Assembly (NCBI GenBank): GCA_050300635.1
Contig: JBNKYC010000014.1
Location: 194,175 to 226,174 of the forward strand
Length of the DNA: 32,000 nucleotides
Reading direction: 5' to 3'
Source: Polyangiaceae bacterium
GTDB taxonomy: Bacteria > Myxococcota_A > Polyangia > Polyangiales > Polyangiaceae
Numbering within the stretch: position 1 is the stretch's first letter; each line of letters begins with the position of its first letter. This document shows positions 2,145-22,920 of the stretch, one piece after another. The notes below the pieces were generated by a model, which saw only the letters and a program-made list of their open reading frames with translations, was not told the origin of the DNA and made no database searches. Both the position numbers and the translations under genes were made by a program.

Positions 2145-2163
2145 TAGAATAACATAAAGAATC

Positions 2164-2197
2164 AACCGGTTGCGGCACTCGCCTCAGCCGGTTTTTT
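2164..2197 (+). terminator. Hairpin plus T-run (terminator-like)
   Basis: AACCGG-18 nt-CCGGTT followed by TTTTT. It abuts the integrase stop codon. Confidence 0.45.
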
Positions 2198-3507
2198 CAT
2201 TTGATCACCACTTCAGACGCCTGATCACCACCATGATCACCACTTGAGGCTTCGGCGGCCTTTTTAGCCCGCTTGGTCATCAAGTTCACCACCTTGCCTA
2301 AGCCCACCTGCTGCTCCTCACCGCGCACCGTCGAGTAGTGGTGCTGCATCCTCTCGGTCAGATGCCCGCTGATGCTGTGGGTCACCAAATCTTGGACTTC
2401 GGCGGCTCGAGCCAGGTCATTGAAGGTGCGGCGCATGCCATGCTGGGTGAAGGCGTAGCCTAGACCCATTTCTTCTGACACTTCGGCAAAGGGCTTGTTG
2501 AGGACGCTAGGGCTGCGGAATCCGCCGGTGAGGGCAGGGAAGAGCAGCTCTGAATCCTTTTGGGCGTCCGCTGTCAGTTGGTCTTCCACGTGCCAGCGCA
2601 GGACGCGAATCACTTCGATAGGCAAGTGGATGCTGTAGCGGGTCTTCTGCTTGGTGGTGTTGAGCACCAAATCACCTCGGGTTTGCGAGCGTCTGACGAG
2701 CAGACGCCCTTCGTCCCAAGGGACATCCGCATTCTCTCCCATGCGGCGCAGGGGACGCATGGTCGATGGGCGAAGCCCGGTACAGAACCCCAGGAAAGCC
2801 ATGGCGTAGTGCTGCGGGTGCAGCTCGCGCAGGAGCTCCAAAAAGACAGGGACCTGCTCGGGAGCGAGGCTATGTGGTGCTTCTTCTGAATAGGTGACGT
2901 GGTCTGAGGTGTCGAAATCACGCACGTCCTCGGTGGGCGAGCGCGAGAGTTCAAATTGACGAACAGCGGCCTTCATGATCACCCGCAGGATGGAAAGCCA
3001 TCCGTTTGCGGTGTTGGGCGAGTAGTCGCCCAGTGCGATCAAGGTCGCCACCCCTTCGCGCCAGCGGTCGACGTGACCCACACGGATCTCATCGACAGCC
3101 AGTTCTCCGAAGCCAGGGACGAAAAAGTCTTCGTCCTTGCTGTGCGTGCCCGCGATGAGATGGTTGAGCGAATGCTTCCACCTATCGCGACCTGCGGGAC
3201 TACGAATGTCTCTCGTCTGGATCTTTTTCTCCAGCAAGGACACCGCGAAGTCGCCGAAGCGCTGCTTCGGAATGGGGTCCGATCCTGTTTGTGACTGGAG
3301 TCGAACTTTCTCGTCCTCCAACCACTCGAAGGCTAACCTCTCCGTTTCCACGTCGAGAACCTTTCTGATCTCGCGCAGCTTCCCGGTCATCGAATCTTTC
3401 ACTCGGGCGCGCACGACGTAGCCTCCTCCTTTCTTCTCGAATACGCCGGGCAGGCGAGTCGGCCTCACCCAGCTGGTTCCTAGTTTCTTGTACTTCTTCT
3501 TGTCCAT
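2197..3507 (-). CDS. int: Tyrosine recombinase / phage-type integrase
   Basis: The ORF contains a C-terminal catalytic-type region (...GLRPSTMRPLR...HGMRRTFNDLA...GHLTERMQHHY). I set the start at MDKKKYKKLGTSW, which has AAGGAG 7 nt upstream, rather than at the track's 3567. Confidence 0.85.
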   Translation of the reverse strand: MDKKKYKKLGTSWVRPTRLPGVFEKKGGGYVVRARVKDSMTGKLREIRKVLDVETERLAFEWLEDEKVRLQSQTGSDPIPKQRFGDFAVSLLEKKIQTRDIRSPAGRDRWKHSLNHLIAGTHSKDEDFFVPGFGELAVDEIRVGHVDRWREGVATLIALGDYSPNTANGWLSILRVIMKAAVRQFELSRSPTEDVRDFDTSDHVTYSEEAPHSLAPEQVPVFLELLRELHPQHYAMAFLGFCTGLRPSTMRPLRRMGENADVPWDEGRLLVRRSQTRGDLVLNTTKQKTRYSIHLPIEVIRVLRWHVEDQLTADAQKDSELLFPALTGGFRSPSVLNKPFAEVSEEMGLGYAFTQHGMRRTFNDLARAAEVQDLVTHSISGHLTERMQHHYSTVRGEEQQVGLGKVVNLMTKRAKKAAEASSGDHGGDQASEVVIK

Positions 3508-3805
3508 CGGGGACTCCTTCAGTTGAAGGCGCACCCGGACGATCCGAGTACAGGTTACCACCGGCACTTCCCGTCAAGAACCGGTCGAGTTCGGCACGCT
3601 CGAATACATGGGTCCCGCGTCCGCCGCGCCGCCCCGCTGCAGCGAGACGCCCCTCCTTCAGGGCCTTCCGGATGGCCCCTGTTGTCCTGAACCCACAATA
3701 CGCAGCAGCCTCCCTCGTCGTGAGGAAAGGCGAGCGAACCGCACCTCCGGCTTCAACCGAACGATGCTGCGCTAGTGGATTTTCGCGGCGTGCCATTGCT
3801 CCCAA
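3200..3805 (-). CDS. xis: Excisionase-family HTH protein (only the N-terminal ~75 aa are recognisable)
   Basis: FLTTREAAAYCGFRTTGAIRKALKEGRL...HVFERAELDRFL resembles excisionase/MerR-type HTH domains. The frame then stays open for about 300 nt across the int start, so the true 3' end and extent are uncertain. Confidence 0.5.
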   Translation of the reverse strand: MGAMARRENPLAQHRSVEAGGAVRSPFLTTREAAAYCGFRTTGAIRKALKEGRLAAAGRRGGRGTHVFERAELDRFLTGSAGGNLYSDRPGAPSTEGVPDGQEEVQETRNQLGEADSPARRIREERRRLRRARPSERFDDREAARDQKGSRRGNGEVSLRVVGGRESSTPVTNRIGPHSEAALRRLRGVLAGEKDPDERHS

Positions 3806-3998
3806 TTATCTGAGAAGCACCGAACCAATTGACAGTCCTTTCCGCACGCTCGCAACGGATACAGCCGGCACTTTAGGGTGCAGTATGAGAACGAGAGCCC
3901 AAAAGAGCTGCCCTCAACACGACCCCCGGAGGGGCTGTTAACTACCGGCTAACCTATCTCATCCACTACTTCTACTAATAGCGGAGTTGCGATTGTTC

Positions 3999-4943
3999 TT
4001 AGCTCAGCAAATAGAACGGCACATCTCCGATGGCGATCTTACTTTGCGTGAGGCGGGAGGGATCGCGGCGGAGGAACTCAGGAACTTCGACGGTTCGCTC
4101 GAAGCTCAATCGACGAGGTAGCGATTCATAGAGCGACCTCGGCGGAGGGTCGTTCTGCATTTCTTTGAATCGCAGGCCGCTGGCGAATGTGTGCATGAAG
4201 ATCTTCTTCAATCCGATATCGCTACGAATGAACTGAATCGTCGCGGCGAGCATCGCTTCGGACCACATCCGTGCGTATGGCTGAAAGAGCTTGGCGTACC
4301 AAAGCAGGTGAGCCCGAGTTACGCCCTCGTGCACATGGCCTGAGCCAACCCAGAGCTTCCCGCTACGGCTTCGCCAGGGGTCCTCGGTCTCGACAGCCTC
4401 CCTCACCTCTTTCGCCCAGTCTGATTGGATCTCTTCGATCAGGGCTTCCCCGGTATCGAGGTCGAAATCGATTCGCGCCCAGGCCAGGGTGCTTCCCTCC
4501 CTAGAGTTGGGATGACAGGACCAAGTAAAGAGTGGTTCTTGGGGCCTAAGCAGTCTTCGATACTCGTGCAGGTGTTCCGCGCCGAGGTTCAGTTGGAGAA
4601 CCAGATTGTAGCCTTTTCGCGAGGTTTGCCCCCACGGCTCTCCAGAAGCGCCGCCGTTCCACGACGTCACGCGCAGGCGGAAGTACTTCGTGCCAGAGGG
4701 ACGAAGTAGCTCGAAGGCCGCTGGCCGCACGACCCCATCTGGGACGGTGCGGAGGAACTGGCGAACAGCCGGCGCCTGAAGCAAACGACCGGCACCAGCA
4801 GCGCGGAGCGCTGACACTTTCTGAGGCTCCTTGCCCACCACCTCTTTCAAACGATGGAGGGCAAACATCCCCGGTGCGTACGAAAACACGCGCTTCTCAT
4901 CTTTGAGGCACTCAAGCGCCTCCCTTATCTGCTGCTTGTCCAC
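3999..4943 (-). CDS. Hypothetical protein (314 aa), no family recognised
   Basis: Long ORF with plausible composition. It sits between xis and the SPFH gene. Confidence 0.5.
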   Translation of the reverse strand: MDKQQIREALECLKDEKRVFSYAPGMFALHRLKEVVGKEPQKVSALRAAGAGRLLQAPAVRQFLRTVPDGVVRPAAFELLRPSGTKYFRLRVTSWNGGASGEPWGQTSRKGYNLVLQLNLGAEHLHEYRRLLRPQEPLFTWSCHPNSREGSTLAWARIDFDLDTGEALIEEIQSDWAKEVREAVETEDPWRSRSGKLWVGSGHVHEGVTRAHLLWYAKLFQPYARMWSEAMLAATIQFIRSDIGLKKIFMHTFASGLRFKEMQNDPPPRSLYESLPRRLSFERTVEVPEFLRRDPSRLTQSKIAIGDVPFYLLS

Positions 4944-5007
4944 AAACGCCTCCCTGAGGCGAAGTGGGGCAGCGTCGCGTCACGAAGAACGATGACGCCG
5001 CCCCTTC

Positions 5008-6123
5008 TTACTTCTGATTGACAGCCCCAGATCCCAGGAACTGCGCTGGCACCAAGGAAGAAAGTCCATCGGCACCGACCACCACTCGGACTTCGGCGAT
5101 GTTCTCGGCGATTTCCTTCATGGCTTCGAGCTCCTTGAGACGGAGCAGGACTGGTTCGGCCGCCATGACCTTGGCCGTGTTGGCGAGAGACCGCGTTGCG
5201 GCCGTCTCTTCACGACGGAGAATCACGTTGGCCTGTGCTTCCTTCTCCGCCTCAATGACGCGGTTCAGAAGCACCTTCATTTCACCGGGGAGGACAACGT
5301 CCTTCACACCGATGTGCTCGACGCGAACACCAATGCCCTCAGCAACAGGCAGAACCTGGGCGATCATTGCACGGGTGAGGGCGTCTCGCCCCTCGAGCAG
5401 TGCATCGAGGGTCACGCCAGCGACATAGTCACGGGCTGCCAGCTGTGCAGCAACGTAGACCGAGTCACGAACACTGGTCACCCGGCGGCTCAGGGCAACA
5501 TCCTCGACTGCGTACTCAACAGAAATGCTGAGGCGCAGCGTGACCTTGTCCCGAGTCATGAGTTCCTGACCGGTAATCGCAAGCTCCGTTCGGCGAACAT
5601 CGACCTTGTCGATGACCACCGGACGGTCGACCGTGTTCCAGAACCGGTAGAGACCTGGTTCGAGAACGCGCTCGAGCTTTCCGCTCACCTTCAGAACCCC
5701 ACGTTCGTGCGGCTGAATCGTTGCTTGAGTGTACTGGCCGGTAGGAACCACCCCTTCGAGCTCTGCGGTCAGAGCAGGAAAGTCAGCGCGCGTGTCGAAC
5801 ACTTCGACGCGAACTGAAGGGTCCATCGTCCAAAATCGCGTCACTCCAGAACGGAGAAACTTGACCGGACGCCCTCCAGCAAACAGCACGGCTCGCTCGT
5901 GGTCGGCAACCTGAACCTCAGCGTACCAATCGGAAGGCAGCACAGCTGCGACCTCTGGGTAGGCATCAAAGATCAGCTCGTCGGCCTTGAAGCGCTGCTC
6001 AGAATAACCGCGTCCCCAAAGGGTGTGGCGACCTGGTCCGAGGGCACGCACGGGCAGACTGTTCTTGAACAGCACGACTCGCTCGTTCAGCTTGACTCGT
6101 AGCGTCTTGTATATTCCAAACAT
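5008..6123 (-). CDS. SPFH/band-7 (slipin-like) domain protein
   Basis: The C-terminal half has a typical SPFH signature (VRVEHIGVKDVVLPGEMKVLLNRVIEAEKEAQANVILRREETAATRSLANTAKVM). Confidence 0.75.
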   Translation of the reverse strand: MFGIYKTLRVKLNERVVLFKNSLPVRALGPGRHTLWGRGYSEQRFKADELIFDAYPEVAAVLPSDWYAEVQVADHERAVLFAGGRPVKFLRSGVTRFWTMDPSVRVEVFDTRADFPALTAELEGVVPTGQYTQATIQPHERGVLKVSGKLERVLEPGLYRFWNTVDRPVVIDKVDVRRTELAITGQELMTRDKVTLRLSISVEYAVEDVALSRRVTSVRDSVYVAAQLAARDYVAGVTLDALLEGRDALTRAMIAQVLPVAEGIGVRVEHIGVKDVVLPGEMKVLLNRVIEAEKEAQANVILRREETAATRSLANTAKVMAAEPVLLRLKELEAMKEIAENIAEVRVVVGADGLSSLVPAQFLGSGAVNQK

Positions 6124-6552
6124 GATTCCGATCTCCTTTCATCGAGATTTCTGAGGCAAAGTTCTTGCTTCGAGAGAATGAGCCTCGCGGTCCATTTCGC
6201 CGCCGAGGCCCCAGGCGACGACCTCCACAAGGAGTCGCGCCGTAAAAGTGGAACTCATTCATCTGACGTGGGGAGCGACACGGGCGAACCCGCTGGGCTC
6301 CGCCGCACCGTGTGGACTCGACGGACTCAGGCCCCGAAAGGCCTTCGCTCGCCTGTCGTTCGGGCCGTGCGGGGAGTCGCCTGCCGGGCTGGTCCGAGAG
6401 CGCCTCATTGAGTGAGGCGTCTGTCAGAAAGCTGGGCAGTCGAGTCCGTCGCGGGCGCGAAAGGAGTCGACGTGAGTGCGGAGCAAGGCGAGCGCTCCCC
6501 TCCCCCGTGGGAAGTTGGCGCGCCTCGCCGACGCTGGATGTTTGAGTTCCTG

Positions 6553-6643
6553 GTTTGGGTAATTTCGCTACCTAAAAGCGTTGCCTTTCGGCACAAGGTT
6601 AAAAGCCTTGTTCTCATGTTCTGACCAACTGAACTACAGCCCC
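6553..6643 (-). pseudogene. Decayed tRNA-Lys(UUU)-like element
   Basis: On the minus strand the 5' half is canonical (GGGGCTG TA GTTC AGTTGGTCA GAAC). The anticodon arm is CAAGG-CTTTTAA-CCTTG. Six extra nt precede the anticodon stem, the T loop is GCGAAAT, and only 4 of 7 acceptor pairs form. Confidence 0.3.
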
Positions 6644-6646
6644 TAG

Positions 6647-6728
6647 TGGAACTGACCGGAATCGAACCGGTGACCGTGAGAGTCTGGTGGACGATACGTT
6701 CGCCTAACGGTGACCACACCATCGCTCC
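6647..6728 (-). other. tRNA-like element with a good T arm but no canonical anticodon arm
   Basis: The T arm is ACCGG-TTCGATT-CCGGT. The acceptor pairs at 5 of 7 positions (GGAGCGA/CAGTTCC). I could not fold the interior as a cloverleaf. Confidence 0.25.
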
Positions 6729-6799
6729 TCAGGACACGAACCACGGACACACAAGGGAGACTGCAAAGAGACCCAAGCGCGCGCCGTCGCACTGACTAA

Positions 6800-6878
6800 A
6801 GAGACGAGAGGGAGTCGAACCCTCTACCCGGAAAGCCCGCCCCAGTCCGATTTGCGGTCGGACCAAGGCGGGCTGGAC
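6800..6878 (-). other. tRNA-like element directly downstream of the HNH gene
   Basis: The T arm is GAGGG-TTCGACT-CCCTC. A long hairpin AGCCCGCC..GTCCGA-CCGCAAA-TCGGAC..GGCGGGCT carries a GCA-containing 7-nt loop. No partner for the acceptor 5' strand was found. Confidence 0.3.
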
Positions 6879-7397
6879 TCAGATCATTCCGTAGGCTTCC
6901 AAGTACGGAAGCCATTCTTCCGGGACGCGGCCGCGGCGCGCGTCGACCATCCCAATCGGGAGGGCCTTGGGCCGCACTGGCTCCATCAGCGGGAACATCC
7001 CCGCTTCGTCACAGCTCAGATTGGCCTTCTTGTTGTTGCAACGCTGACACGCAGCAACGATGTTCTCGAACGTTCGAGGCCCGCCGTGACTCCGAGGAAC
7101 CACATGGTCCATCGTGAGATCACTTCCGGGCAGATGAGCTCCGCAGTACTGGCAGCGGAACTTATCGCGGATCTTCACATTGTGGTCCGAGTACTTGATC
7201 CCCTTCTTGAAACGGGGAGTCATGTGCCGCAGGCGAATGACGGCAGGCACGTTCCAGGTCACGGACGGGGAAGAGACCGTCTCTGAATACTCAGCAATGA
7301 CATCGACCGTTTCCTCGTAGGTCATCTTGATTGCGGCCTGCCAAGGAACCACCTTTATCGGGAAGTACCAGGCCGTGAGGAGCAGTGAATTTCGCAT
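6879..7397 (-). CDS. HNH endonuclease (small McrA/COG1403-like)
   Basis: The motif reads CQYCG...LTMDHVVPRSHGGPRTFENIVAACQRCNNKKAN. The start is set at MRNSLLL, with AAGGAGG upstream. The track's longer N-terminus runs into a non-coding repeat. Confidence 0.8.
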   Translation of the reverse strand: MRNSLLLTAWYFPIKVVPWQAAIKMTYEETVDVIAEYSETVSSPSVTWNVPAVIRLRHMTPRFKKGIKYSDHNVKIRDKFRCQYCGAHLPGSDLTMDHVVPRSHGGPRTFENIVAACQRCNNKKANLSCDEAGMFPLMEPVRPKALPIGMVDARRGRVPEEWLPYLEAYGMI

Positions 7398-7432
7398 CAC
7401 GGCCTCCTTTCCTTTGTTGGTGCGATTGACTG

Positions 7433-7560
7433 TTTCTTTCAGGAGGGCAGAGGCCCTCCTCGTCGCGGGAAGTGAATCCCGGCTCCTCACCTCCACCCAA
7501 GCGACGTGCGCTCCGGCGCCTCCCACTTGGTCGGCGGCGGTACTCGCGCTCTCGTCCCGG
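7433..7560 (-). repeat. Copy 1 of a ~125-bp repeated non-coding element (leader-like, ends ~36 nt before the HNH start)
   Basis: About 88% identical to 8692-8818. Minus-strand hairpins GGAGGGC-CTCT-GCCCTCC and CGGGA-TTCACT-TCCCG are present. Confidence 0.7.
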
Positions 7561-7739
7561 CGCTACCGAGCCTCGTCCTGCCGGTCGCGGAAGACGGGCC
7601 CCGACGCTCCCCGGGCGGAAGGGCGCAGGAAACCACCGGCGACTAAGTAGGAGCCGCTGGATTTCCAGCGGAAGGTGGGGAGGAGAAGCGGAGATTCACT
7701 CTCCGCGACGGAGGGGACGCCGTCCCCTCAAAAAACGAG

Positions 7740-7813
7740 TAGAGCACATGGGAGTTGAACCCATCGCAGGTCCCTTATCAGGAGACCCAGATCAAACCGG
7801 ATCGTCGTGCTCA
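7740..7813 (-). tRNA. tRNA-Ile(GAU)
   Basis: Anticodon arm GTCTC-CTGATAA-GGGAC, T arm ATGGG-TTCAACT-CCCAT. The acceptor forms 6 bp with a U1-U72 mismatch. No CCA is encoded. Confidence 0.65.
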
Positions 7814-7814
7814 G

Positions 7815-7962
7815 TGCTGTCGGCGGGAGTCGTGGCCGAGCCCCGCTAGGGGCGAGCCCCACCGAGATAGTGCGATCGAAGAACGCACTATCGAAGGTCA
7901 CCCGCAATGCCGTGCGGCACGCCGTCTCAGGGCGCTGTGTATGCCTGTTCCACCACGACAGC
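7815..7962 (-). tRNA. tRNA-Leu(GAG)-like, abnormally long (148 nt)
   Basis: Perfect 7-bp acceptor GCTGTCG/CGACAGC with A73. Anticodon arm GCGCC-CTGAGAC-GGCGT and a type II variable arm CCGCA-CGGCAT-TGCGG. About 75 extra nt of hairpins precede the 3' strand, including the motif CTCGGCCACGACTCC. Confidence 0.45.
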
Positions 7963-7963
7963 G

Positions 7964-8081
7964 TGGTACACGCCCTCGGATTCGTGGCCGAGGACGTAGT
8001 CCGAGTCCCGCCGAGCGAAGCGACGGCCACCAGACTTCCCGGGCTTAAACCGGGCACCTCTACCGATTGGGTTAGGCGTGC
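7964..8081 (-). tRNA. tRNA-Leu(UAA), long (118 nt), CCA encoded
   Basis: Acceptor GCACGCC/GGCGTGT followed by ACCA. Anticodon arm CCCGG-TTTAAGC-CCGGG. The variable region is 45 nt and the T arm is CTCGG-CCACGAAT-CCGAG with an 8-nt loop. Confidence 0.55.
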
Positions 8082-8085
8082 CGAG

Positions 8086-8167
8086 CGGAAGGTAGAGAAA
8101 TCGAACCACGCACCTCTCGGTGCCCCTGGTTTTCAAAACCAGTTCGCCTCCATAGGCGGTACCTTCC
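8086..8167 (-). tRNA. tRNA-Ser(UGA)
   Basis: Perfect acceptor GGAAGGT/ACCTTCC with G73. Anticodon arm CTGGT-TTTGAAA-ACCAG and variable arm GCACC-GAGA-GGTGC. The T stem has two mismatches. Confidence 0.6.
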
Positions 8168-8169
8168 GG

Positions 8170-8241
8170 ATGAGGTGACAGGAATTGAACCCGCATCGCC
8201 GGGTTCAAAGCCCAGGGTCTTGACCGTTAGACGACACCTCA
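8170..8241 (-). tRNA. tRNA-Gln(UUG)
   Basis: Perfect acceptor TGAGGTG/CACCTCA, D arm GTCT-AACGGTCA-AGAC, anticodon arm CTGGG-CTTTGAA-CCCGG, T arm GCGGG-TTCAATT-CCTGT. Confidence 0.8.
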
Positions 8242-8394
8242 GAAGTTTTCTTCGCTGCGCAGGCAGCGACGCGCTCAGCACCGCCGACGAGCAAGCCCCA
8301 TTGCGAGTCGCCGGAGCGCCCGCGGAGTTGGGGGGAGGCTCACGCAGCGCTCTGCGCAGAGTGAGGGGGGCTGCATCAGCCCCCGATGAAACAG

Positions 8395-8463
8395 TCGCGA
8401 CGGAAGTATTCGAAACTTCATGCGAGCCCGTATGAAAGGCTGCTCCGACCCTCGGTCGCCGCG
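8395..8463 (-). tRNA. tRNA-Met(CAU), short (69 nt) with a reduced D arm
   Basis: Acceptor CGCGGCG/CGTCGCG, anticodon arm AGCCT-TTCATAC-GGGCT, T arm GAAGT-TTCGAAT-ACTTC. The D region is only CCGA-GGG-TCGG plus a 3-nt connector. A competing 10-bp hairpin lies at 8447-8477. Confidence 0.5.
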
Positions 8464-8540
8464 GTTGCGAGGGTCGGTAATGCTCCGATCTGATCTCCGG
8501 GCCATGAACCCGACGAGCCACTTTTGCTCCATCCTCGCGG

Positions 8541-8613
8541 CGTTTCGGCCAGGACTCGAACCTGAATTTCAGCCTTCGCAGGGCTGCGTCCTGTCCAGTT
8601 GGACGACCAGAAC
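8541..8613 (-). tRNA. tRNA-Arg(GCG)
   Basis: D arm GTCC-AACTGGACA-GGAC, anticodon arm CAGCC-CTGCGAA-GGCTG, T arm TCAGG-TTCGAGT-CCTGG. The acceptor has one mismatch. Confidence 0.75.
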
Positions 8614-8618
8614 AATCG

Positions 8619-8691
8619 CGTTCTCGGCAGGAGTCGAACCTGCACCCATCCGCTTAGAAGGCGGCTGCCCGTCCAATCGAGCCTCGAGAAC
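8619..8691 (-). tRNA. tRNA-Arg(UCU)
   Basis: Perfect acceptor GTTCTCG/CGAGAAC, anticodon loop CTTCTAA, T arm GCAGG-TTCGACT-CCTGC. Confidence 0.8.
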
Positions 8692-8818
8692 TTGTCTTTT
8701 CAGGAGGGCAGAGGCCCTCCTCGTCGTCGGGAGTGAATCCCGACTCCTCACCTCCACCCCTGCGACGTGCGCTCCGGCACCTCCCACTTGGTCGGTGGCG
8801 GTGCTGGCGCTCTCATCA
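8692..8818 (-). repeat. Copy 2 of the ~125-bp repeated element (its end abuts the 5' end of tRNA-Arg(UCU))
   Basis: It aligns with 7433-7560. The internal hairpin is TCGGGA-TTCAC-TCCCGA, with changes at the stem ends that extend the pairing relative to copy 1. Confidence 0.7.
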
Positions 8819-8932
8819 TCGCTTCGCGGTGCTTCGTCCTGGCGGGCGCCGGGCATAAGGGCAGGCCGCAGAACCCGTGAGGGTTCGAGGACCTCGACAA
8901 AAGTTACGGCACGCAGCACACCCGTGGAGGAG

Positions 8933-8983
8933 AGCCGAAGAGGTTTCGCCCTCACTTGTGATGGGGCGGAAACTCGTAGGCCT
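8933..8983 (-). repeat. Copy A of a ~50-nt conserved motif
   Basis: GCCGAAGAGGTTTCGCCCTCACTTGTGATGGGGCGGAAACTCGTAGGCC, compared with 10740-10789. Confidence 0.6.
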
Positions 8984-9058
8984 CCCCCACGGGCAAGCAG
9001 AGTGAAGCGCCATCGTGCACAGTTCGTCGATAAAGGCCGACGGACACGCTGCGCTCGG

Positions 9059-9126: not shown

Positions 9127-9131
9127 ATTCG

Positions 9132-9203: not shown

Positions 9204-9204
9204 T

Positions 9205-14999: not shown

Positions 15000-16028
15000 A
15001 TGCTTACTATCAACGGATCTATGGGAGAGGGCGGTGGCCAGGTCCTGCGTTCATCGCTTGCCCTCTCGGCTGTGACCGGGACTCCGTTTCGCATCGAAGG
15101 GATCCGTGCGAAGCGCAGTCGCCCCGGTCTGCTTCGGCAGCATCTAACCGCTGTTCGGGCTATGGCTGAGGTTTGTTCGGCGCGCGTCTCTGGGGCCGAA
15201 TTGGGCTCGCGAGAGCTTACCTTCGAACCTGGTGTCACCAAGCACGGACACTACGAGTTCGCCGTCGGTACTGCCGGTAGCGCCACGCTCGTCTTTCAGA
15301 CGGTGCTCCCAGCACTGCTCACTACCGCTGGCGAATCTCGACTTGTCTTCGAAGGGGGAACGCACAACGCGTGGGCTCCACCTGTCGACTTCATCCAACA
15401 CACCTTCCTTCCGCTGCTTCATCGCATGGGAGCGACTGTTCAGATCGAATTGGAGCGCCACGGGTTCTACCCGGCTGGTGGCGGGCGCTTCGCAGTACGC
15501 ATCGCCGGCGGCTCACCTCTTTCGGGACTCGAACTTTCAGAGCGCGGGGATATCGAAAGCGTGCTGCTTGACGCATTGGTCAGTCAGATCCCCGAGCATG
15601 TCGCGGAGCGCGAGGTGCGCACGTTGGCTCGTCAACTCGCCGATCTACCCGTCGGCGTCGAGACCCATGCCGTGAACAGCCCAGGCCCAGGAAATGTCGC
15701 GATGGTGAGAGTGCGCTCAGCGCACCTGACTGAGGTGTTCACCTCCTTCGGAGAACGCGGGGAGAAGGCGGAGACGATTGCTCACCGCCTCGTTGGAGAT
15801 GTGCGCAAGTACGTCGCCTCAGAAGTCCCGGTCGGAGAACACCTCGCGGATCAGCTTCTGATCCCACTGGCTCTCGCGGGAGAGGGTGCCTTTGTGACGG
15901 GCGAGCCAAGTCTGCACACAACGACTAACCTCGAGGTGATTGGGATGTTCTTGCCCGGACGGCTCACGCTTGAACGCGGCTCCGCCGGCGCGCGCATTAT
16001 CGCGAAAGGGGGGCGTCATGAGGGCTGA
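15000..16028 (+). CDS. rtcA: RNA 3'-terminal phosphate cyclase RtcA
   Basis: GEGGGQVLRSSLALSAVTGTPFRIEGIRAKRSRPGLLRQHL is typical of RtcA. The gene lies immediately downstream of rtcB. Confidence 0.9.
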   Translation: MLTINGSMGEGGGQVLRSSLALSAVTGTPFRIEGIRAKRSRPGLLRQHLTAVRAMAEVCSARVSGAELGSRELTFEPGVTKHGHYEFAVGTAGSATLVFQTVLPALLTTAGESRLVFEGGTHNAWAPPVDFIQHTFLPLLHRMGATVQIELERHGFYPAGGGRFAVRIAGGSPLSGLELSERGDIESVLLDALVSQIPEHVAEREVRTLARQLADLPVGVETHAVNSPGPGNVAMVRVRSAHLTEVFTSFGERGEKAETIAHRLVGDVRKYVASEVPVGEHLADQLLIPLALAGEGAFVTGEPSLHTTTNLEVIGMFLPGRLTLERGSAGARIIAKGGRHEG

Positions 16029-16070: not shown

Positions 16071-17156
16071 CTATCCGCAGAGAAGCGAACGCTTCGCTCG
16101 GAACATGGAGGATTGGCCGAGCCGAGCACGCAGAAGGTGCGACGGAAAGAGACGTGAATGCTCAAGAAGCCCCAACGGGCCCTTGAGCCACAGCAGAAAC
16201 AATCGAAGCCGCTTTTGCTTCCGAGTTCTCGCCAACACCACATGGAAGTGAGGCCAGCTCCGACGACGGAGGGTGGCCCCGTTGTAGATAAGTGAGTAGC
16301 AGCTGGGATCGCCGTAGCGTTCCCGCGCCAGCTCCCGAGCTTCGCGGTGCGCGGCGAAAAAGAACTCCTCCTCGTCCTCGGTTCCACCTGTCAGTCTTCC
16401 TTGCGAGATCACGAAATACTCCGTGAGACCCGGCACCTTCTTTTGGATTACTTCCAGCGTCCCTGGGCGTCCTTTCTTGAGGTTCTCCAGTTCCCACTCC
16501 ATGTTCTCGCGCGCCTGTGCCGCGAAAGCGCCCTCGAACAGAGGGTTCGCGTAGAGACTCTTCCTGCGCAGCATTCCCCGAAGGAACCGCCTTCGCCCCC
16601 AGCGATACTCCCAGTTCGCGTATGGGGAATGCTCCTCTCGCACCTGCCGCGCGTATTCCCGGTACCGCTCGGCGGGGCTACCCAGAATCCAGAGATCGGC
16701 GTCGCACATGATGGTGGAGAGCTGCACTCCTCGAGCGTCGTGGTCCTTCGTCTCAAGGATGAGCGAGATGACCCCCTCGATGACTTCTCTCTTTAGCCCG
16801 CCCTCTCTCGCGAGGCTTTGAAACAGTTCAGCACTCCGGTGCTCGTTGTCCTGGGCTCCGGGGTCGTAGACCACGTCGTGAAACCACAAGGCCAGCTCCA
16901 GCTCCCCCGGCACTTCGCCCCAACCCACGATTGCGGCGTATTGCTCCACGATCTGAAGGCACTCCTCGATATGCTGGAGGTTGTGAAAGTGCCGATGTGA
17001 CTGTGAGTAGGCTGACTTCAGGACGCGAAAGACGGCCTGGGCGTTCGGGTCGTTCCCCCATGCGTTCACGAACCTCCGCCCTAACTCAGCCTCGCCGCTA
17101 AGTACCGGTGCGTGAAAGCCCCTTCCGTAGCGCCTCTCGATTTCCTTCGTTTTCAT
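16071..17156 (-). CDS. HD-superfamily phosphohydrolase (COG4339-like) with a ~130-aa C-terminal extension
   Basis: The N-terminal ~225 aa carry RHFHNLQHIEEC...LALWFHDVVYDP...NEHRSAE. The extension contains IYNGATLRRRSWPHFHVVL, a possible degenerate HIT-like motif. Paralogue of 20076-20786. Confidence 0.7.
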   Translation of the reverse strand: MKTKEIERRYGRGFHAPVLSGEAELGRRFVNAWGNDPNAQAVFRVLKSAYSQSHRHFHNLQHIEECLQIVEQYAAIVGWGEVPGELELALWFHDVVYDPGAQDNEHRSAELFQSLAREGGLKREVIEGVISLILETKDHDARGVQLSTIMCDADLWILGSPAERYREYARQVREEHSPYANWEYRWGRRRFLRGMLRRKSLYANPLFEGAFAAQARENMEWELENLKKGRPGTLEVIQKKVPGLTEYFVISQGRLTGGTEDEEEFFFAAHREARELARERYGDPSCYSLIYNGATLRRRSWPHFHVVLARTRKQKRLRLFLLWLKGPLGLLEHSRLFPSHLLRARLGQSSMFRAKRSLLCG

Positions 17157-17753: not shown

Positions 17754-17762
17754 CGCGCTGCG

Positions 17763-18896
17763 TCACCCCATCGCCTCAATCATCTCGAACGCGAATCTGT
17801 CCACCCATTCGTGGTCCACCTCACCAGGGAGCTTCGACTCGCTCGCCGCTTTCTTCATGCGCGTCTCGAGGCGTTCAGATTCCTCGACCAGCTTCTCGTA
17901 AGGCCAAGCGCCTTCACGTATGCGCATGAGTTCTTCGGCGTCGGCTCGGCGCACCAGGAGCTTTCCCGATTCGACTACCTCCAGACCGGTTCGCATCAGC
18001 CGAACGAGGTGAGCGCCGTGCTTCGTATCGAAACCGTGTTTGGCCTCTAGCGCCGCACGCGCCGGATTGCGATTTCTCTTCCAGGCTTGGTACGCGTCCC
18101 ACTGCTTCATCGCACCCCGGTACTTTTTCTCGGCATTCAGTGCCTGGACGACCCCGGCTGGAAGCTGCAGACCGTGGCTGGCGACTGCTCTGAGGCGCTC
18201 TTCCAGGTCGTCAGGGCTAGCCGCAACCGCATCACTCATGAACTCGGCGAGATGCGCCTGGACTTCGATGCGCAGGTCAGCGGGCATGTCGATGTTGTTT
18301 AGTCCGTAGGCCCGAACTCGATCGGCGAGGGCCTGCTCGATACGGTTCTGGTCATCTCTCCCCACGGTCCCGCTCTCAGGGAGACCGAACTCGCCTCGCG
18401 AGGGCTTCTGCTTTGGGGGTGCGAGCAGCCAAGAGCGGTGCGCCTTGATCTTCTTGAGCTGAGCGGTGGCGTAGCCCAGATACGTTTGCGCAATACGCTT
18501 GGTCAGAAAGCGGTCGCGAACCTCGAACAACCTTGCCCACAGCGGAGCCGAGTAGACCCAGTCGCGCTCATCCGCGAAAAGAATTTCGAGCGCGTTTGGG
18601 TTTGCCGACGCGCAGAGCTTCAGGAACTTCGCCACATCGAAGACGACCGACTCGACCTTGTGGCTGAGCCCATGCTGCGCTGTCTGATGGGCCTGGAGCT
18701 TGGGCAGAATCGACTGCCAGAGTTCCTTGGGCAGTTTCTCCTCGCTTTGATCGAAGCTGCGAAACAAGGAGCAGCGCACCGAGAGAGGAGCGACGCAGAC
18801 CCCTCGAAGGTCGACATCACTGCCGGAGGTCGCCGTGCCGCGCGCCTGACTACCGGCAAGCGTGACGAAGATCGTTCGTTCACTCAGAAACGTCAC
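17763..18896 (-). CDS. RlaP-type (PF10127-like, Pol-beta superfamily) nucleotidyltransferase, long form
   Basis: LAGSQARGTATSGSDVDLRGVCVAP nucleotidyltransferase motif. Its start overlaps the stop of the upstream paralogue (ATGA). Confidence 0.65.
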   Translation of the reverse strand: MTFLSERTIFVTLAGSQARGTATSGSDVDLRGVCVAPLSVRCSLFRSFDQSEEKLPKELWQSILPKLQAHQTAQHGLSHKVESVVFDVAKFLKLCASANPNALEILFADERDWVYSAPLWARLFEVRDRFLTKRIAQTYLGYATAQLKKIKAHRSWLLAPPKQKPSRGEFGLPESGTVGRDDQNRIEQALADRVRAYGLNNIDMPADLRIEVQAHLAEFMSDAVAASPDDLEERLRAVASHGLQLPAGVVQALNAEKKYRGAMKQWDAYQAWKRNRNPARAALEAKHGFDTKHGAHLVRLMRTGLEVVESGKLLVRRADAEELMRIREGAWPYEKLVEESERLETRMKKAASESKLPGEVDHEWVDRFAFEMIEAMG

Positions 18897-19675
18897 GTCG
18901 ACCTTTCCAGGCGAACTCGAACGACGAAGTCGTCAAGCGCTTCCTTCGCAGCCGGCTCATCCGGCAGCGAACTCGATTCATGCGCCTTCTGGAGTCGTTC
19001 CTCCAGTCGGTCCAGGTACTTCTCGTGGCTTTCGACTTCCCCGTCCTGGAGCCTCATCTTCTCGGCCCCCTGACGCTTCCTCTCCACGAGGTCCTCGATC
19101 TCGCGAAGACGATAGGCATCATTGAGCGAGGTCAAATTCGCCTCGATACGCCCGGTCTCCATGAGATGGATCCCCGAAAGGTAAACCCGGTAGGCGTACA
19201 AGAGGTGCTTCACCGTAGGCTCCGGCTCATGAAGCCTCTTCCGGCGTCCCCGAGCAAACCCCTGATAGTGGCGCACCATCGGCCGAGTGATGCAGCCTTT
19301 CCCGAGTTCCATCAGTTCTTCGTGGAGCCCAGTCGTCACAACTACGAGCGGCGAGTACAGCTGCTCCATGACGTAGCCATTGTGGCTCACCATCATCTTG
19401 GCGAACTTCCGCAGGTCGTGCGCTACCCAATCGAGCTCAATTGTCGAGTTATCCTCGATGGTGATGGTCTCTTTCAGAGGATGGATCGAAAGCAGTTCCT
19501 TCGCGCTCAGAAGGAACGCACCTCGGAGGTCCACATCGCTATCCGGTGAGGCGAATCCGTAGAGATGGGCGCCACTGATGGTCGCAAAGACGGGGTAGGG
19601 TCCATCAGCAGTGATCTTCGCCAGGTGCTCCTTGTCGAGCATGGACCAGACTTCGGCAATTGCTTGTTCGTCCAT
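18893..19675 (-). CDS. RlaP-type (PF10127/YcgL-like) nucleotidyltransferase
   Basis: ISGAHLYGFASPDSDVDLRGAFL motif. The start is set at MDEQAIAEVW with GGTGAGG upstream. Confidence 0.7.
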   Translation of the reverse strand: MDEQAIAEVWSMLDKEHLAKITADGPYPVFATISGAHLYGFASPDSDVDLRGAFLLSAKELLSIHPLKETITIEDNSTIELDWVAHDLRKFAKMMVSHNGYVMEQLYSPLVVVTTGLHEELMELGKGCITRPMVRHYQGFARGRRKRLHEPEPTVKHLLYAYRVYLSGIHLMETGRIEANLTSLNDAYRLREIEDLVERKRQGAEKMRLQDGEVESHEKYLDRLEERLQKAHESSSLPDEPAAKEALDDFVVRVRLERST

Positions 19676-19749
19676 AATGTACCTCACCCTCTCATGTCGA
19701 AGGAGGGTAGGAGTTTCGACTGCATGCCTGCAAGGGCTCAAGCGGCCAA

Positions 19750-20091
19750 CTACTCAATTCGCTCCCAGATCAAGAATCGCTCGTTACTCGTGCACCCCAT
19801 GGCCTGAATCACGACCTCGTAGTTCAGCCCCGGGAAGTCCTTGATCTGGTCGAGCACCAGTTGACCGAACTTACCGGGGATCACGCATCCGTGATCTCCT
19901 GCGTCGAGGAGCCAGAAGACATCCTCTACAAAGGGCCCTTCGTCCGTGGTGATGATCTCGATGCGGGTCACTTCACCCCACAGGACTTGCTCGGTTCGGC
20001 CGTTCGAGAGCTGCCGCCGGGCTCCTCGATCGTCCACGACGACCGGCGGCGCCAGCTTGGGGCCGAAAGCTCTCTTCAACCAGCCAAGCAC
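19750..20091 (-). CDS. Small hypothetical protein (113 aa)
   Basis: The ORF overlaps the stop of the upstream HD gene by 16 nt. No family was recognised. Confidence 0.45.
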   Translation of the reverse strand: MLGWLKRAFGPKLAPPVVVDDRGARRQLSNGRTEQVLWGEVTRIEIITTDEGPFVEDVFWLLDAGDHGCVIPGKFGQLVLDQIKDFPGLNYEVVIQAMGCTSNERFLIWERIE

Positions 20092-20786
20092 AGACCCCTC
20101 CCTGCATTGAGAGCCTTCACCTCGCTCTGCATGTTCGTTCGGGCCAAGGCTCCAAACTCCTCCTCAAACAGCGGGTTCGTGAATACATGCGTGCCCTTCA
20201 GCATCTCCTGCAGGAAACGAAGGCGCCCCCAGCGGTACTGCCAATTGGAGTACTTCGCGTACTCATCGCGCACCTGCCGGCTGTACTCGCGGTAGCGCCC
20301 CGCCGGGCTACCCAGAATCCAGAGATCGCAGTCGCACATGATGCTGGAGAGCTGCACCCCACATGCCTTGTGATCCGTCGTCTCGAGGATGAGGGCGCTT
20401 GCCCCCTGGATGACGTCAGTCGTCAGCCCGGCCTGCGCTGCCAGAACCTGAAACTGCTCTGCGCTGCGCCGCTCGTTGTCCTTCGCTCCTGGCTCGTAGA
20501 CCATGTCATGAAACCAGAGCGCCAGCTCTAGCTCCAGGGGCACTTCCGGCCACCCGACGATGGCTGCGTACTGGGAAGCGAGCTGAACGCACTCATCGAC
20601 ATGCCGGAGAGTGTGAAAGCGCCGATGGGTCTCGGCGTAGGCGTCCCTCAGAACGTGCCACGCAGCCCCTCCAAGCTCCCGAGTGCCCCAGCGATTCACG
20701 AACCGTCGCTCCAAGGTCGCTCTGCCGCTCAAGACGGGCGCCTGGAAGCCGATTCCGTAGCGCCTCTCGATATCTTCCGTTTCCAT
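20076..20786 (-). CDS. HD-superfamily phosphohydrolase (COG4339-like), short paralogue
   Basis: RRFHTLRHVDEC...LALWFHDMVYEP...NERRSAE. It is first in a codirectional run of four genes. Confidence 0.75.
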   Translation of the reverse strand: METEDIERRYGIGFQAPVLSGRATLERRFVNRWGTRELGGAAWHVLRDAYAETHRRFHTLRHVDECVQLASQYAAIVGWPEVPLELELALWFHDMVYEPGAKDNERRSAEQFQVLAAQAGLTTDVIQGASALILETTDHKACGVQLSSIMCDCDLWILGSPAGRYREYSRQVRDEYAKYSNWQYRWGRLRFLQEMLKGTHVFTNPLFEEEFGALARTNMQSEVKALNAGRGLCLAG

Positions 20787-20808: not shown

Positions 20809-20826
20809 ATTGGTTATCCAACCAAT
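20809..20826. promoter_or_regulatory. Second copy of the palindromic operator candidate
   Basis: ATTGGTTATCCAACCAAT, within a ~60-bp stretch identical to 17159-17220. Confidence 0.55.
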
Positions 20827-20828
20827 CT

Positions 20829-21401
20829 ATGGGAAGACCGAGCAACCGTGAGGAAAAGCGGCGAGAAATTCTGCAGGCCTTTGCCCAGGTGCTGGCCGAT
20901 CACGGCTACGCGGGGGCCACCGTCGCCAAAGTCGCGGCAGAGGCCGGGGTAGCTCCGGGGCTCATTCACCACCACTTCAAGAACAAGGAGGAGCTCCTCG
21001 GCGCACTCCTGGACATGCTGATGGGGCGGTTTCGTTCCAGGCTACGCGATCAGGACGCTCAGGAGGGCGGACTCGCTGCGTACGCAGACGCGGCGCTCAA
21101 ACTGGATGAGAAGGCTGACACGGTGGCGGCAAAGTGCTGGGTAGGGCTCCTCGCTGAAGCGGTGAGGAACCCTGACTTGTTCAAACGAGTGCGTAGGCTC
21201 CTCGACTCGGAAATCTCCAATATCCAAGCGCTCAGCGGGAACCGCATGAGCGACCACGATGCGAGCGCTGTGCTCGCGTTTGTGATGGGTTCTTTGGTGT
21301 TTGGGGCGTTTGCGCCAAGGAAGACCGCGGGATTTGCGGCGCCGGCGCTGAAGAGTCTTGTTTCGACGCGAGACCTTCTGATCCCACCGGAGAACAGCTA
21401 G
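20829..21401 (+). CDS. TetR-family transcriptional regulator (paralogue, ~90% identical to 17199-17753)
   Basis: It has the same HTH block. The start is set at MGRPSNREEK. Confidence 0.85.
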   Translation: MGRPSNREEKRREILQAFAQVLADHGYAGATVAKVAAEAGVAPGLIHHHFKNKEELLGALLDMLMGRFRSRLRDQDAQEGGLAAYADAALKLDEKADTVAAKCWVGLLAEAVRNPDLFKRVRRLLDSEISNIQALSGNRMSDHDASAVLAFVMGSLVFGAFAPRKTAGFAAPALKSLVSTRDLLIPPENS

Positions 21402-21447
21402 GGTCCGCAGCGCTGCCCACTGGACGAATCTGCCCAGGAACGAGACG

Positions 21448-22920
21448 ATGAAGACACTGCGCGTCGAACTAAGACACTGTTACGGCATAAAGAAGCTGAG
21501 CACCAAGTTCGAGTTCAGCAAGGACCGCGCGTACGCTGTCTATGCCCCGAATGGCGTGATGAAGTCGTCATTCGCGGAGACGTTCAAGGACATCTCGTTG
21601 GCGAGGTCTTCCCAAGATCGCATCTTCCCGAATCGAGAAACTGTCCGCGGGGTTACGGATGAAAGCGGCACCGACTTACCGGCAGAGTCTGTGCTTGTAC
21701 TCCCACCCTACGACGAAGTTTTTGGGGACTCGGATAGGACAGCCACCCTCCTGGTCGATACCAAACTGCGAAAGGAATATGAGAAGCTTTTCGCAGACAT
21801 CGAGAAGTCCAAGACCGCGTTTCTCAAGCAGATGAAGGCTCAGTCCAAGACCAAGCGCGATCTCGAAAGGGAAATATCGAGCACTTTCACGAGGTCAACT
21901 GACAAATTCTACCAGGCGCTCATCAGGGTGAAGAAGGAGGTTGCAGAGCTTCCTGAACCGCAATTCTCGAATGTGGCCTACGACTTGGTCGCGGACGAAA
22001 AGGTGCGCGCGTTCCTCGAAACCGGAGACGTCAAGCAAGTCCTTCAGGACTACATTGACCAGTACAATAAGCTCCTTGAGCAGTCGAAGTACTTTCGAAA
22101 AGGAACGTTCGACTACTACAACGCCTCCACCATTGCGAAATCCCTCGCAAAGAACGGATTTTTCAAGGCCAAGCACACCGTAACTCTAAACGCGGAGAGC
22201 AAGGTTGAGGTCACCAATGAGAAGCAGTTAGCGAAAGTTGTAGCCGAGGAAAAGGCCGCGATCGTCAAGGACGAAAAACTCAAGAAGACCTTCGACGAGA
22301 TGGAGAAGCGCATCACAAAGAATGAGCTGCTCCGAGGTCTTCAGGAGTTCATTGCGAACAGTCAAGAAGTCCTTGCGCTTCTGGGCAACCTGGAGCAACT
22401 CAAGGAAGACATCTGGAAGTCCTATTTCAAAGAGCATGAATCGCTCTATCTGGAGCTCATTGAGAAGTTCCAGGCGGCAGAGGTACGACAAAAGCAGATC
22501 CTAGCTGAAGCGACGCGGCAGCGGACGGACTGGGAAGATGTCGTGGAGATCTTCAATCGCCGCTTCTTCGTTCCCTTCAAGCTAACGGTCACAAACAGAG
22601 AGTCCGTGATGATAGGTCGCGCCCAAGTCCCCTCGCTTGGGTTCGTCTTTGAGGAGGACGGCCAGACAGCAGATGTCGAGCGTTCAGACCTACTGAAGGT
22701 GTTGAGCACTGGCGAAAAGAAGGCTCTCTACATCCTGAACGTCATTTTTGAAGTAGAGGTCCGTAGGAAAGCCCAAACGCCGACAGTGTTCGTCGTAGAC
22801 GACATCGCGGATTCGTTCGACTACAAGAACAAAGTACGCGATCATTCAGTATCTTAAGGACATCGCCGAAGAATCATGCTTCCGGCAAATCATCCTTACT
22901 CATAATTTCGACTTCTTCAA
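21448..22920 (+). pseudogene. ABC/SMC-type (AAA_13-like) ATPase, frameshifted and 3'-truncated
   Basis: Degenerate P-loop YAPNGVMKSS, signature LSTGEKKALYIL and Walker B VFVVDDIADSFD. The natural continuation KYAIIQYLKDIAEESCFRQIILTHNFDFF is in the +1 frame after an extra G at about 22834. Similarity ends at about 22920. GC content is visibly lower than in neighbouring genes. Confidence 0.6.

Follow-up and report, generated by a model that had tools for sequence, protein, structure and literature searches.

Predicted RtcR/sigma54 control of a tRNA gene array clustered with RNA repair genes in a Polyangiaceae bacterium

The locus described here lies in a 32-kb stretch of DNA from a Polyangiaceae bacterium (Myxococcota), hereafter the window, to which all coordinates refer; the block under study spans positions 2145-22920. 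Its central part holds the RNA repair genes rtcR, rtcB and rtcA and, next to rtcR, an array of tRNA genes followed by genes for an HNH endonuclease and an SPFH protein. Two HD phosphohydrolase-like genes, each with a divergent TetR regulator, and two genes for RlaP nucleotidyltransferases lie beyond rtcA, and the ends of the block are taken up by an integrase and an excisionase-like gene close to tRNA fragments on the left and by a decayed ATPase gene on the right. These parts, including sigma54-driven rtcB-rtcA, had been listed in an initial annotation of the stretch, and all of them are present. The best reading of the locus is that an Rtc repair operon and an HNH-linked long tRNA array (L-array), two known systems, have been fused at the level of regulation. 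The main new point is a prediction, namely that RtcR and sigma54 control the array.

Rtc genes and two predicted sigma54 promoters

The rtcR gene (11755-13338, minus strand) encodes a protein matching PF06956 (1.7e-81, residues 2-181) and PF00158 (1.1e-48, residues 183-350), in which a full-length N-terminal CARF-type RtcR domain, a sigma54 AAA+ domain and a lid can be seen directly. On the plus strand, rtcB (13724-14947; PF01139, 2.4e-130; a 407-aa gene call in the database) is followed by rtcA (15000-16028; PF01137, 3.8e-78). A GTG at 13658 was considered as the start of rtcB and rejected: homology and the database gene call both begin at 13724, and the stretch upstream is a tRNA-like leader. 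For comparison we used a set of 80 RtcR loci, each with 10-kb flanks. The closest RtcR relatives are metagenome-assembled genomes of Polyangiaceae (Myxococcota); the nearest of them, with 94% identical RtcR, is designated L001, and other loci are referred to by L numbers in the same way.

The divergent sigma54 (-24/-12) promoter that marks an RtcR-regulated rtcBA operon is present before rtcB-rtcA. Within its region (13341-13466, plus strand), a TATC-N6-GATA dyad (13341-13354) is followed by TGGCACAACGTCTGCA (13451-13466), a perfect match to the sigma54 motif. In the alignment of Polyangiales loci, the sigma54 core is invariant and the dyad is conserved in 8/8. A second, predicted promoter region (11658-11762, minus strand) combines another sigma54 motif, TGGCACGCCCCTCGCA (11673-11658), with two further dyads (11729-11742 and 11749-11762). 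This motif, on the strand of the array, follows the rtcR stop codon and precedes the first tRNA gene; its core, TTGGCAC-N5-CTCGCA, does not vary among the window, L001, L002 and L003. The TATC-N6-GATA dyad occurs three times in the window, compared with 0.07 expected occurrences, and all three copies are upstream of the two sigma54 motifs: the array promoter has two at a distance of 60-85 bp, and the rtcB promoter has one at ~100 bp. A sigma70 promoter scan of 4900-13700 found none, and a terminator scan of the same interval gave terminator-like matches at or below chance.

We regard the dyad as a putative RtcR enhancer site. Because the array promoter shares this conserved dyad with the rtcB promoter, the array, the HNH gene, a tRNA mimic, the SPFH gene and a gene for a 314-aa protein are predicted to belong to the RtcR regulon. 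RtcR would then bind the dyads, and the array would be co-induced with rtcB and rtcA. Between the array promoter and the first tRNA gene lies a leader (11355-11604, minus strand), which is conserved in the alignment and consists of a 60-codon ORF (11422-11604, also present as a 60-aa database gene call) and a GC hairpin (~11355-11395) of high stability (z-score -3.7).

The tRNA array and its recurrence beside repair genes

ARAGORN finds 20 tRNA genes at 7739-11279 on the minus strand, that is, 5.6 genes per kb over 3541 bp. The array thereby has the size and density of an L-array, a tRNA array unit defined in the abstract of PMC4758250 by at least 20 tRNA genes at a density of at least 2 per kb. 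Its tRNAs cover 17 amino acids (ARAGORN); Met, Cys and Trp are missing from the set, which had been described as near-complete. The Rfam tRNA gathering score is reached by at least 13/20, which score 42-64 bits; with the general tRNA model of Rfam, the Thr(CGU) tRNA scores 23 bits and the Ile, Ala, His, Pro and Tyr tRNAs go unreported. Anticodon loops are canonical, with U33 in 19/20 and a purine at position 37 in 20/20, and the tRNA-Ala has the G3:U70 identity pair and an encoded CCA. Judging from such features, the array tRNAs are probably aminoacylated. The tRNA-Leu(CAG) gene (9360-9433, minus strand) is 74 nt long and has no long variable arm. Leu genes of this kind (73-78 nt, no long variable arm) are also found in the arrays of L016, L084, L096 and L097, spanning arrays of Myxococcota, Planctomycetota, Actinomycetota and Cyanobacteria, and Leu anticodons are frequent among the tRNA or tRNA-like genes at rtcR loci.

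Most array tRNA genes are 97-100% identical to those of L001 (68-86% for Gln, Thr(CGU) and Asn), while rtcR and rtcB DNA, at ~82% identity, falls below most of them. The spacers of the two arrays differ by large insertions and deletions, and some spacers are near-identical. The identity of the tRNA genes points to either strong constraint or recent exchange of the array, and these explanations are not separable because some spacers are near-identical as well. Downstream of rtcR, the window has 20 tRNA genes, L001 has 21, L003 seven, L002 one and L004-L007 none. Since relatives carry 21, 7, 1 or 0 tRNA genes at this place, the array is accessory and subject to fast turnover. A 152-nt non-coding repeat (85% identity) is located just upstream of the HNH gene (7437-7588) and again in a gap of the array (8698-8849). 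An HNH pseudogene was considered at the latter copy and discarded, as no HNH remnant is found there.

In L001 the genes are arranged as rtcA-rtcB<>rtcR-21 tRNAs-HNH-SPFH-RlaP-RlaP, which includes all repair parts of the window except the HD/TetR modules and the 314-aa protein. Because the gene set stays together through rearrangement in L001, the functional link is better supported than it would be by one gene order. Arrays in or beside Rtc or RtcB loci also occur in L003, L008, L016, L179 and L183. L008 (positions 1-6836), which is myxobacterial, has rtcR-RlaP-RlaP followed by tRNAs, Ro60, tRNAs, HNH and tRNAs. L016 (positions 1-14000), on a Sedimentisphaerales chromosome and so from another phylum, reads rtcR<>4 tRNAs-SPFH-5 tRNAs-rtcA-GFA-rtcB-PcfJ-like-PrfH; its tRNAs pass the Rfam threshold in 9/9 cases and have a sigma54-like motif upstream. 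A gene for an EF-Tu-like GTPase is found next to rtcR in this locus. More generally, in 26/80 RtcR loci the 500 bp upstream of rtcR contain between one and four tRNA or tRNA-like genes, encoded on the opposite strand and in many cases with impossible anticodons. The recurrence of the gene set is a direct observation and supports a functional tie of Rtc repair to the array.

The HNH endonuclease gene (6879-7397, minus strand; PF01844) follows the array. Homologues with 35-37% identity (tblastn) are found inside or beside arrays of 36, 28, 28 and 15 tRNAs on plasmids of Acidiphilium, Mycolicibacterium, Nostoc and Calothrix, respectively, and the gene is also conserved in L001, in L003, where it accompanies the 7 tRNAs downstream of rtcR, and in L002, where it accompanies the single tRNA. 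A scan of metagenomes with the HNH sequence returned one close relative, on a 2.5-kb contig. A phage origin of the HNH-array unit was considered and set aside: nine viral contigs carry homologues, and of the four best, which were scanned, one has tRNAs nearby. The position of the gene suggests a role in the cluster.

The array and its HNH gene might have been acquired horizontally and have landed beside an ordinary rtc operon, making them chance neighbours. Arrays are indeed mobile and patchy (PMC8421152), and the HNH family often occurs without tRNAs or repair genes: any tRNA is found in only 13/80 of its metagenome loci, and no array lies near the HNH copies of Rhizobium and Acaryochloris. 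The association, however, recurs in the window, L001, L003, L008, L016, L179 and L183 with differing partners and orders, both promoters have the dyad in common, and in Anabaena a regulon ties together the same types of genes even though they are dispersed in that genome. Chance neighbourhood therefore strikes us as highly improbable.

The metagenomic origin of the DNA and the repeat-rich nature of tRNA arrays also raise the question of whether a contig has wrongly joined an array-bearing element to the rtc locus. A protein identical in sequence to the first HD protein (HD1) of the window is present in NCBI assembly GCA_050300095.1 and on an independent Logan contig of a different run. The latter has the order HD1-rtcA-rtcB-rtcR-array region-HNH-SPFH, the same as in the window, and because this independent contig keeps the gene order, misassembly of the core is unlikely. 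In L001, which comes from a separate study, rtcR, array, HNH and SPFH are likewise contiguous. Taken together, these data leave an assembly artefact with next to no probability.

Associated genes, tRNA-like RNAs and the integrase end

The gene for the SPFH/Band-7 protein (5008-6123, minus strand; PF01145) is separated from the HNH gene by a non-coding spacer of 755 nt (6124-6878, minus strand) that is 82% conserved across three loci. An ORF within the spacer (6405-6722) is probably spurious. The spacer has a T-arm hairpin at 6807-6825 with compensatory changes and, at ~6560-6700, a circularly permuted tRNA-like domain composed of a T arm, a closed acceptor hairpin, a D arm and an anticodon-like hairpin with the loop CUUUUAA. 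It matches the Rfam YrlA family (RF02553) with 32.6 bits (E-value = 4e-5), below the gathering score of 69, and the match is limited to the tRNA-like domain (model positions 23-87). No TROVE or vWA_Ro60 match was found in the scanned ORFs of the window, so that neither the Ro60 protein nor the full YrlA score of a Ro60-Y RNA module was found. A tRNA-like RNA beside Band-7 and RtcB ('b7a-tRNA'), sometimes with YrlA in its place, is a prediction of Burroughs & Aravind 2016, as quoted in bioRxiv 10.1101/312249. The window has the same elements, in that the tRNA-like element precedes SPFH and RtcB and RlaP lie 7.6 kb and ~11.6 kb away.

An SPFH homologue is located between rtcR and rtcB in ~30/80 RtcR loci, in the order rtcR<>tRNA-like-SPFH-rtcB-rtcA, often with RlaP thereafter. 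Because both SPFH and RlaP recur in operons at RtcR loci, they are regular members of RtcR operons and not cargo of an island, as had been supposed for SPFH. The two RlaP genes of the window (PF10127) are found at 17763-18896 and 18893-19741 on the minus strand; the first matches the profile partially and the second over its full length. In L001 the pair directly follows SPFH, as opposed to its position beyond rtcA in the window. According to a 2025 preprint (PMC12776372), RlaP extends damaged RNA 3' ends by one or two nucleotides and contributes to the recovery of tRNA charging.

The gene for the 314-aa protein (u314; 3999-4943, minus strand) has 361 homologues, none of which carries a Pfam domain. 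Members of this family stand next to RtcB in 5/6 genomic contexts examined. L179 reads 19 tRNAs-HNH-tRNA-like-Band_7-u314-RtcB and L183 is similar, HNH-Band_7-u314-RtcB being found in both. We assign u314, as a member of a widespread RtcB-associated family, to the repair cassette. Since the cassette of array, HNH, tRNA mimic, SPFH and u314 recurs in an unrelated genome, the repair block extends to the left as far as 3999. The AlphaFold model (AF2) of the protein has a pLDDT of 82, and Foldseek gave weak matches to the GNAT fold (best E-value = 0.04), too weak for a function to be assigned.

HD1 (16071-17156, minus strand) and HD2 (20076-20786, minus strand) were recognized from the names of their homologues, 'predicted metal-dependent HD superfamily phosphohydrolase', and from an H...HD motif in their translations; the weakest of the homologous matches carry PF01966. 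Each gene lies beside a divergent TetR regulator on the plus strand (17112/17220-17753 for HD1; TetR2, 20601/20829-21401, for HD2). The two modules are diverged duplicates with 71-87% identity, the HD1 and HD2 proteins being 63% identical. HD1 has a C-terminal extension of ~130 residues (16071-16470, minus strand), which is absent from HD2 and most homologues and is shared by only three database proteins. Neither HD1 and HD2 nor the 314-aa protein gave a Pfam or NCBIfam match, even at E-values up to 10, and sequence searches of the PDB with HD1 and with the decayed gene at the right edge of the block returned nothing useful. The SPFH, HD and 314-aa proteins may all take part in repair, to judge from their neighbours.

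The leader upstream of rtcB (13480-13697, plus strand) is predicted to form a tRNA-like RNA of ~215 nt, supported by conservation. The fold is unpermuted: the acceptor stem has 7 bp and ends in ACCA, D and T arms are both present, and a structured insert of ~150 nt takes the place of the anticodon arm. Among three sequences, 11/60 predicted pairs are changed on both sides. The window, L001 and L004 have this RNA; L002 and L005-L007 lack it.

At the left end of the block lie genes for a tyrosine integrase (2197-3567, minus strand; PF00589, phrog_1) and an excisionase-like protein with an HTH_17 domain (3200-3805, minus strand; PF12728, residues 27-78). The latter ORF overlaps the integrase gene by ~370 nt in another frame, which may reflect a misassigned start or stop or one damaged gene. 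Just to the left of 2145 are three att-like tRNA 3'-end fragments, at 1731-1753 (plus), 1931-1953 (minus) and 2127-2144 (plus), with a chance expectation of 0.12. The plus-strand copies have an identical 18-bp core in common, at a spacing of 391 bp, and neither of them is preceded by a complete tRNA; ARAGORN finds no intact tRNA at the fragments. The att core occurs at 1736, 1931 and 2127 only, the fragments are flanked by TGATCAC motifs, and all of these elements are within 1632-2982. Searches of the 32 kb for a second att site, with the 23-mer and the 18-mer at up to three mismatches and with the TGATCAC motif, found none to the right of 2982.

The right-hand end is formed by a remnant of the candidate defence gene PDC-S46 (21448-22857, plus strand, with similarity to ~22925), matching positions 1-457 of 719 of the PADLOC profile (E-value = 4.6e-161). 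The gene is frameshifted, after which similarity is lost, so that the profile is not matched over its full length. The ATPase reported here initially is therefore indeed decayed; it gave no match to Pfam AAA_13, to which it had been likened, and PDC-S46 of PADLOC matched instead. The remnant has a lower overall GC content (0.52), with GC at third codon positions (GC3) as in its neighbours, and it ends at the right-hand boundary of the block. We do not assign it to the repair system. Outside the block, an N-terminal fragment of ribose-phosphate pyrophosphokinase (28417-28776, minus strand) and a fragment of a Y2-type transposase (526-1398, minus strand) suggest a decayed, rearranged neighbourhood.

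The initial annotation had viewed the whole of 2145-22920 as one integrase-mobilized island with the array and the repair genes as cargo. Consistent with such a view are the apparently intact integrase, the excisionase-like gene and the direct repeats of tRNA fragments at the left edge, the Y2-transposase fragment further left and the lower-GC decayed defence gene at the right edge. Horizontal spread has been reported for long tRNA arrays (PMC8421152), and relatives differ in what flanks the rtc locus. Integrase genes also adjoin the cyanobacterial plasmid arrays that we retrieved, so that an integrase beside such an array is not unusual. However, neither the att core nor the TGATCAC motif occurs outside 1632-2982, there being no copy of the core to the right within 32 kb, and there is no intact target tRNA. 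L001 shares 4959-16025 and 17762-19654 with the window but not the integrase and excisionase genes; its synteny ends at 4959, just past a hairpin that follows the SPFH stop codon. Across the Polyangiales relatives, in which RtcR identity ranges from 94% down to 73%, rtcR-rtcBA is present, in no case with the integrase nearby, and in four genomes rtcR runs on without a break into the leader and sigma54 promoter downstream of it. GC3 is 0.65-0.77 in block genes and flanks alike, a uniform composition that is uninformative on foreign origin. Within the 32 kb and the relatives compared, the hallmarks of a tRNA-targeting island (bracketing att repeats, an intact target tRNA, a compositional shift and presence or absence as a whole unit) are thus all lacking, although an att site may lie beyond position 32000.

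Two of the checks suggested for the island turned out negative: relatives share sub-blocks in other orders and without the integrase instead of having or lacking the block as a unit, and there is no skew of GC3 relative to the flanks. We consider an island comprising the whole block quite unlikely. Because the att core is confined to the left, the integrase is not shared with L001 and GC3 is uniform, the integrase module is better seen as a separate neighbour with its own att remnants on the left side only, and it is not supported as the vehicle of the 20-kb block. Flank synteny is absent among relatives, and the ancestral context is not settled by flank comparison. Of the proposed mobile module joining tRNA repair to an array, the functional link is supported, by virtue of its recurrence and the shared dyad, and the integrase-borne island is not.

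Known relatives of the locus and its proposed function

The combination of array and repair genes had been thought undescribed, which does not hold, since like combinations are described in PMC8421152, in PMC10272220 and, as quoted in bioRxiv 10.1101/312249, by Burroughs & Aravind 2016. Santamaria-Gomez et al. 2021 (PMC8421152) reported that long tRNA arrays spread horizontally, that an HNH gene is conserved beside them and that rtcB lies near some of them. In Anabaena, translational stress induces the array together with the HNH gene and rtcB, and RtcB repair together with array tRNAs was proposed to keep up the tRNA pool or to act as a sponge for toxins (PMC8421152). A 2023 study defined the TrcR regulon, which consists of the array, rtcB, the HNH gene and a pair of genes for a hypothetical protein and a slipin; Anabaena has no RtcR homologue, and cyanobacteria lack both RtcR and sigma54 (PMC10272220).

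The trn operon of Anabaena sp. PCC 7120 (HNH gene all8564; PMC8421152, PMC10272220, PMC4758250) resembles the locus in having at least 20 dense tRNA genes, a patchy presence and some degenerate tRNAs, a homologous HNH gene at the array edge (36-37% identity to the copies beside Nostoc and Calothrix plasmid arrays) and a tie to rtcB and an SPFH/slipin gene, which in Anabaena is one of co-regulation. It differs in that its parts are dispersed and controlled by the repressor TrcR, whereas here they form one physical cluster around rtcR with RtcR and sigma54 as the predicted activator. The host here is a soil myxobacterium, contigs of 162 and 358 kb suggest a location on the chromosome and not on a megaplasmid, and RlaP, the HD/TetR modules, a YrlA-like RNA and the 314-aa family are present in addition.

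With rtcR/rtcBA of E. coli and rsr-yrlBA-rtcBA of Salmonella (PMC7790460, PMC9650030) the locus shares the divergent rtcR and sigma54-driven rtcB-rtcA, the full-length CARF-type domain of RtcR and an operon-encoded ncRNA that mimics tRNA. Unlike these operons, the window has a YrlA match only below the threshold and no Ro60/TROVE was found in it, the RNA leader of rtcB is unpermuted and ACCA-ended with a large insert, and a second RtcR-type promoter is predicted to drive 20 tRNA genes. As regards the Band-7 systems of Burroughs & Aravind 2016, as presented in bioRxiv 10.1101/312249 and PMC12776372, a tRNA-like RNA before SPFH with RtcB and RlaP nearby is held in common. In contrast to those systems, SPFH is located here downstream of rtcR behind a full array instead of leading the rtcBA operon, the RNA paired with it is permuted in the manner of YrlA, and there are two RlaP paralogues under separate HD/TetR modules. 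Finally, tRNA-targeting islands and integrative and conjugative elements with arrays, such as those in Acidithiobacillus (PMC4758250), likewise have a tyrosine integrase, an excisionase-like gene and tRNA 3'-end repeats by the array. The locus differs from these in having no att pair around the array and repair genes and no intact target tRNA, in that no conjugation genes were seen, in its uniform composition and in the absence of the integrase from the syntenic relative. In our searches of the literature, no account of a tRNA array controlled by RtcR, or of a clustered form like this one, was found. The novel elements are the predicted control of the array by RtcR and sigma54, the single physical cluster in Myxococcota, the 314-aa RtcB-associated family and the ~215-nt leader of rtcB.

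We think it fairly probable that the block is a chromosomal RNA repair supercluster built around rtcR and rtcBA, with an attached HNH-associated L-array under RtcR control. The more specific proposal, to which we give somewhat less than an even chance, is that RtcR directly switches on a spare tRNA set together with repair enzymes in a closed circuit of sensing, mending and resupply. In Salmonella, the ligands of the RtcR CARF domain are 5' tRNA halves with a 2',3'-cyclic phosphate end (Hughes et al. 2020, PMC7790460), and the full-length homology of this domain suggests that RtcR of the window would also sense broken tRNAs. Active RtcR would then fire the two sigma54 promoters carrying the same TATC-N6-GATA dyad. 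From the first, the tRNA-like leader RNA, RtcB and the cyclase RtcA would be produced, and RtcB would ligate ends with 2',3'-cyclic phosphate or 3'-phosphate to 5'-OH ends. The second, just past the rtcR stop codon, would yield the short ORF and hairpin, the 20 tRNAs, HNH, the YrlA-like mimic, SPFH and the 314-aa protein. RlaP can replace nucleotides trimmed from broken RNA ends and the HD phosphohydrolases may heal those ends, their nearby genes presumably being under TetR-type control. The net effect would be the repair of damaged tRNAs and a fresh tRNA pool, which could also soak up tRNA-cutting enzymes.

Alternatively, the array RNAs might serve mainly as baits or decoys for tRNA-cutting enzymes, with their cleavage yielding the halves that activate RtcR, or with the RNAs themselves titrating the toxins. 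The array is immediately beside rtcR, tRNA halves are the RtcR ligand in Salmonella (PMC7790460), and in many phyla the operons at RtcR loci begin with 1-3 tRNA-like genes whose anticodons are impossible. Seven of the 20 array genes are atypical, with low covariance scores, reduced D arms or, in the case of tRNA-Leu, a short form. For Anabaena the sponge idea has already been raised, and operonic tRNAs are cleaved there under stress (PMC8421152). On the other hand, the canonical anticodon loops, G3:U70 and CCA argue for charging, 23/26 array tRNAs of Anabaena are aminoacylated in vivo (PMC8421152), and an array that is induced by RtcR cannot be the first sensor. We regard a mainly decoy function as unlikely; as a second role, it is compatible with an RtcR-controlled repair and resupply cluster.

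Several observations weigh against the proposed RtcR control and resupply. The sigma54 motif of the array has C for the consensus T just before the -12 GC, and sigma54 matches with one mismatch are expected 3.4 times per window by chance; the weight of the array promoter rests on its conservation and on the dyads, because the motif alone is not significant. Experimentally defined RtcR binding sites were found for no species in the literature, and the regulatory reading is drawn from the sequence of an uncultured, metagenome-assembled genome. The hairpin and ORF of the array leader could act as a terminator or attenuator, and transcription could stop there before the first tRNA. As to the tRNAs, 7/20 have low scores under the general tRNA model, D arms are reduced in several and the tRNA-Leu lacks its long variable arm. 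Their identity to those of L001 could reflect recent transfer or gene conversion and not selection, and the redundancy of the array with the tRNA set of the host is deduced solely from relatives without an array. Lastly, relatives show no synteny on either side of the rtc locus, so that the surrounding region may be plastic and a larger mobile context may exist.

The purpose of large, mostly silent tRNA arrays in bacteria has been only partly answered, the sole experimental system being Anabaena with its cyanobacteria-specific repressor. In the window and its look-alikes, found in Planctomycetota and in a third genome, arrays lie physically inside the best-understood response to tRNA damage, and the two sigma54 promoters with one common dyad provide a concrete and testable regulatory link. 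The 314-aa family, the HD/TetR modules, the tRNA-like leader and the YrlA-like RNAs are candidate repair components for biochemistry. If the prediction is true, silent arrays would gain a defined inducer and a purpose outside cyanobacteria, and tRNA resupply would be a regular arm of RNA-damage defence against ribotoxins, anticodon nucleases and ribosome-targeting antibiotics.

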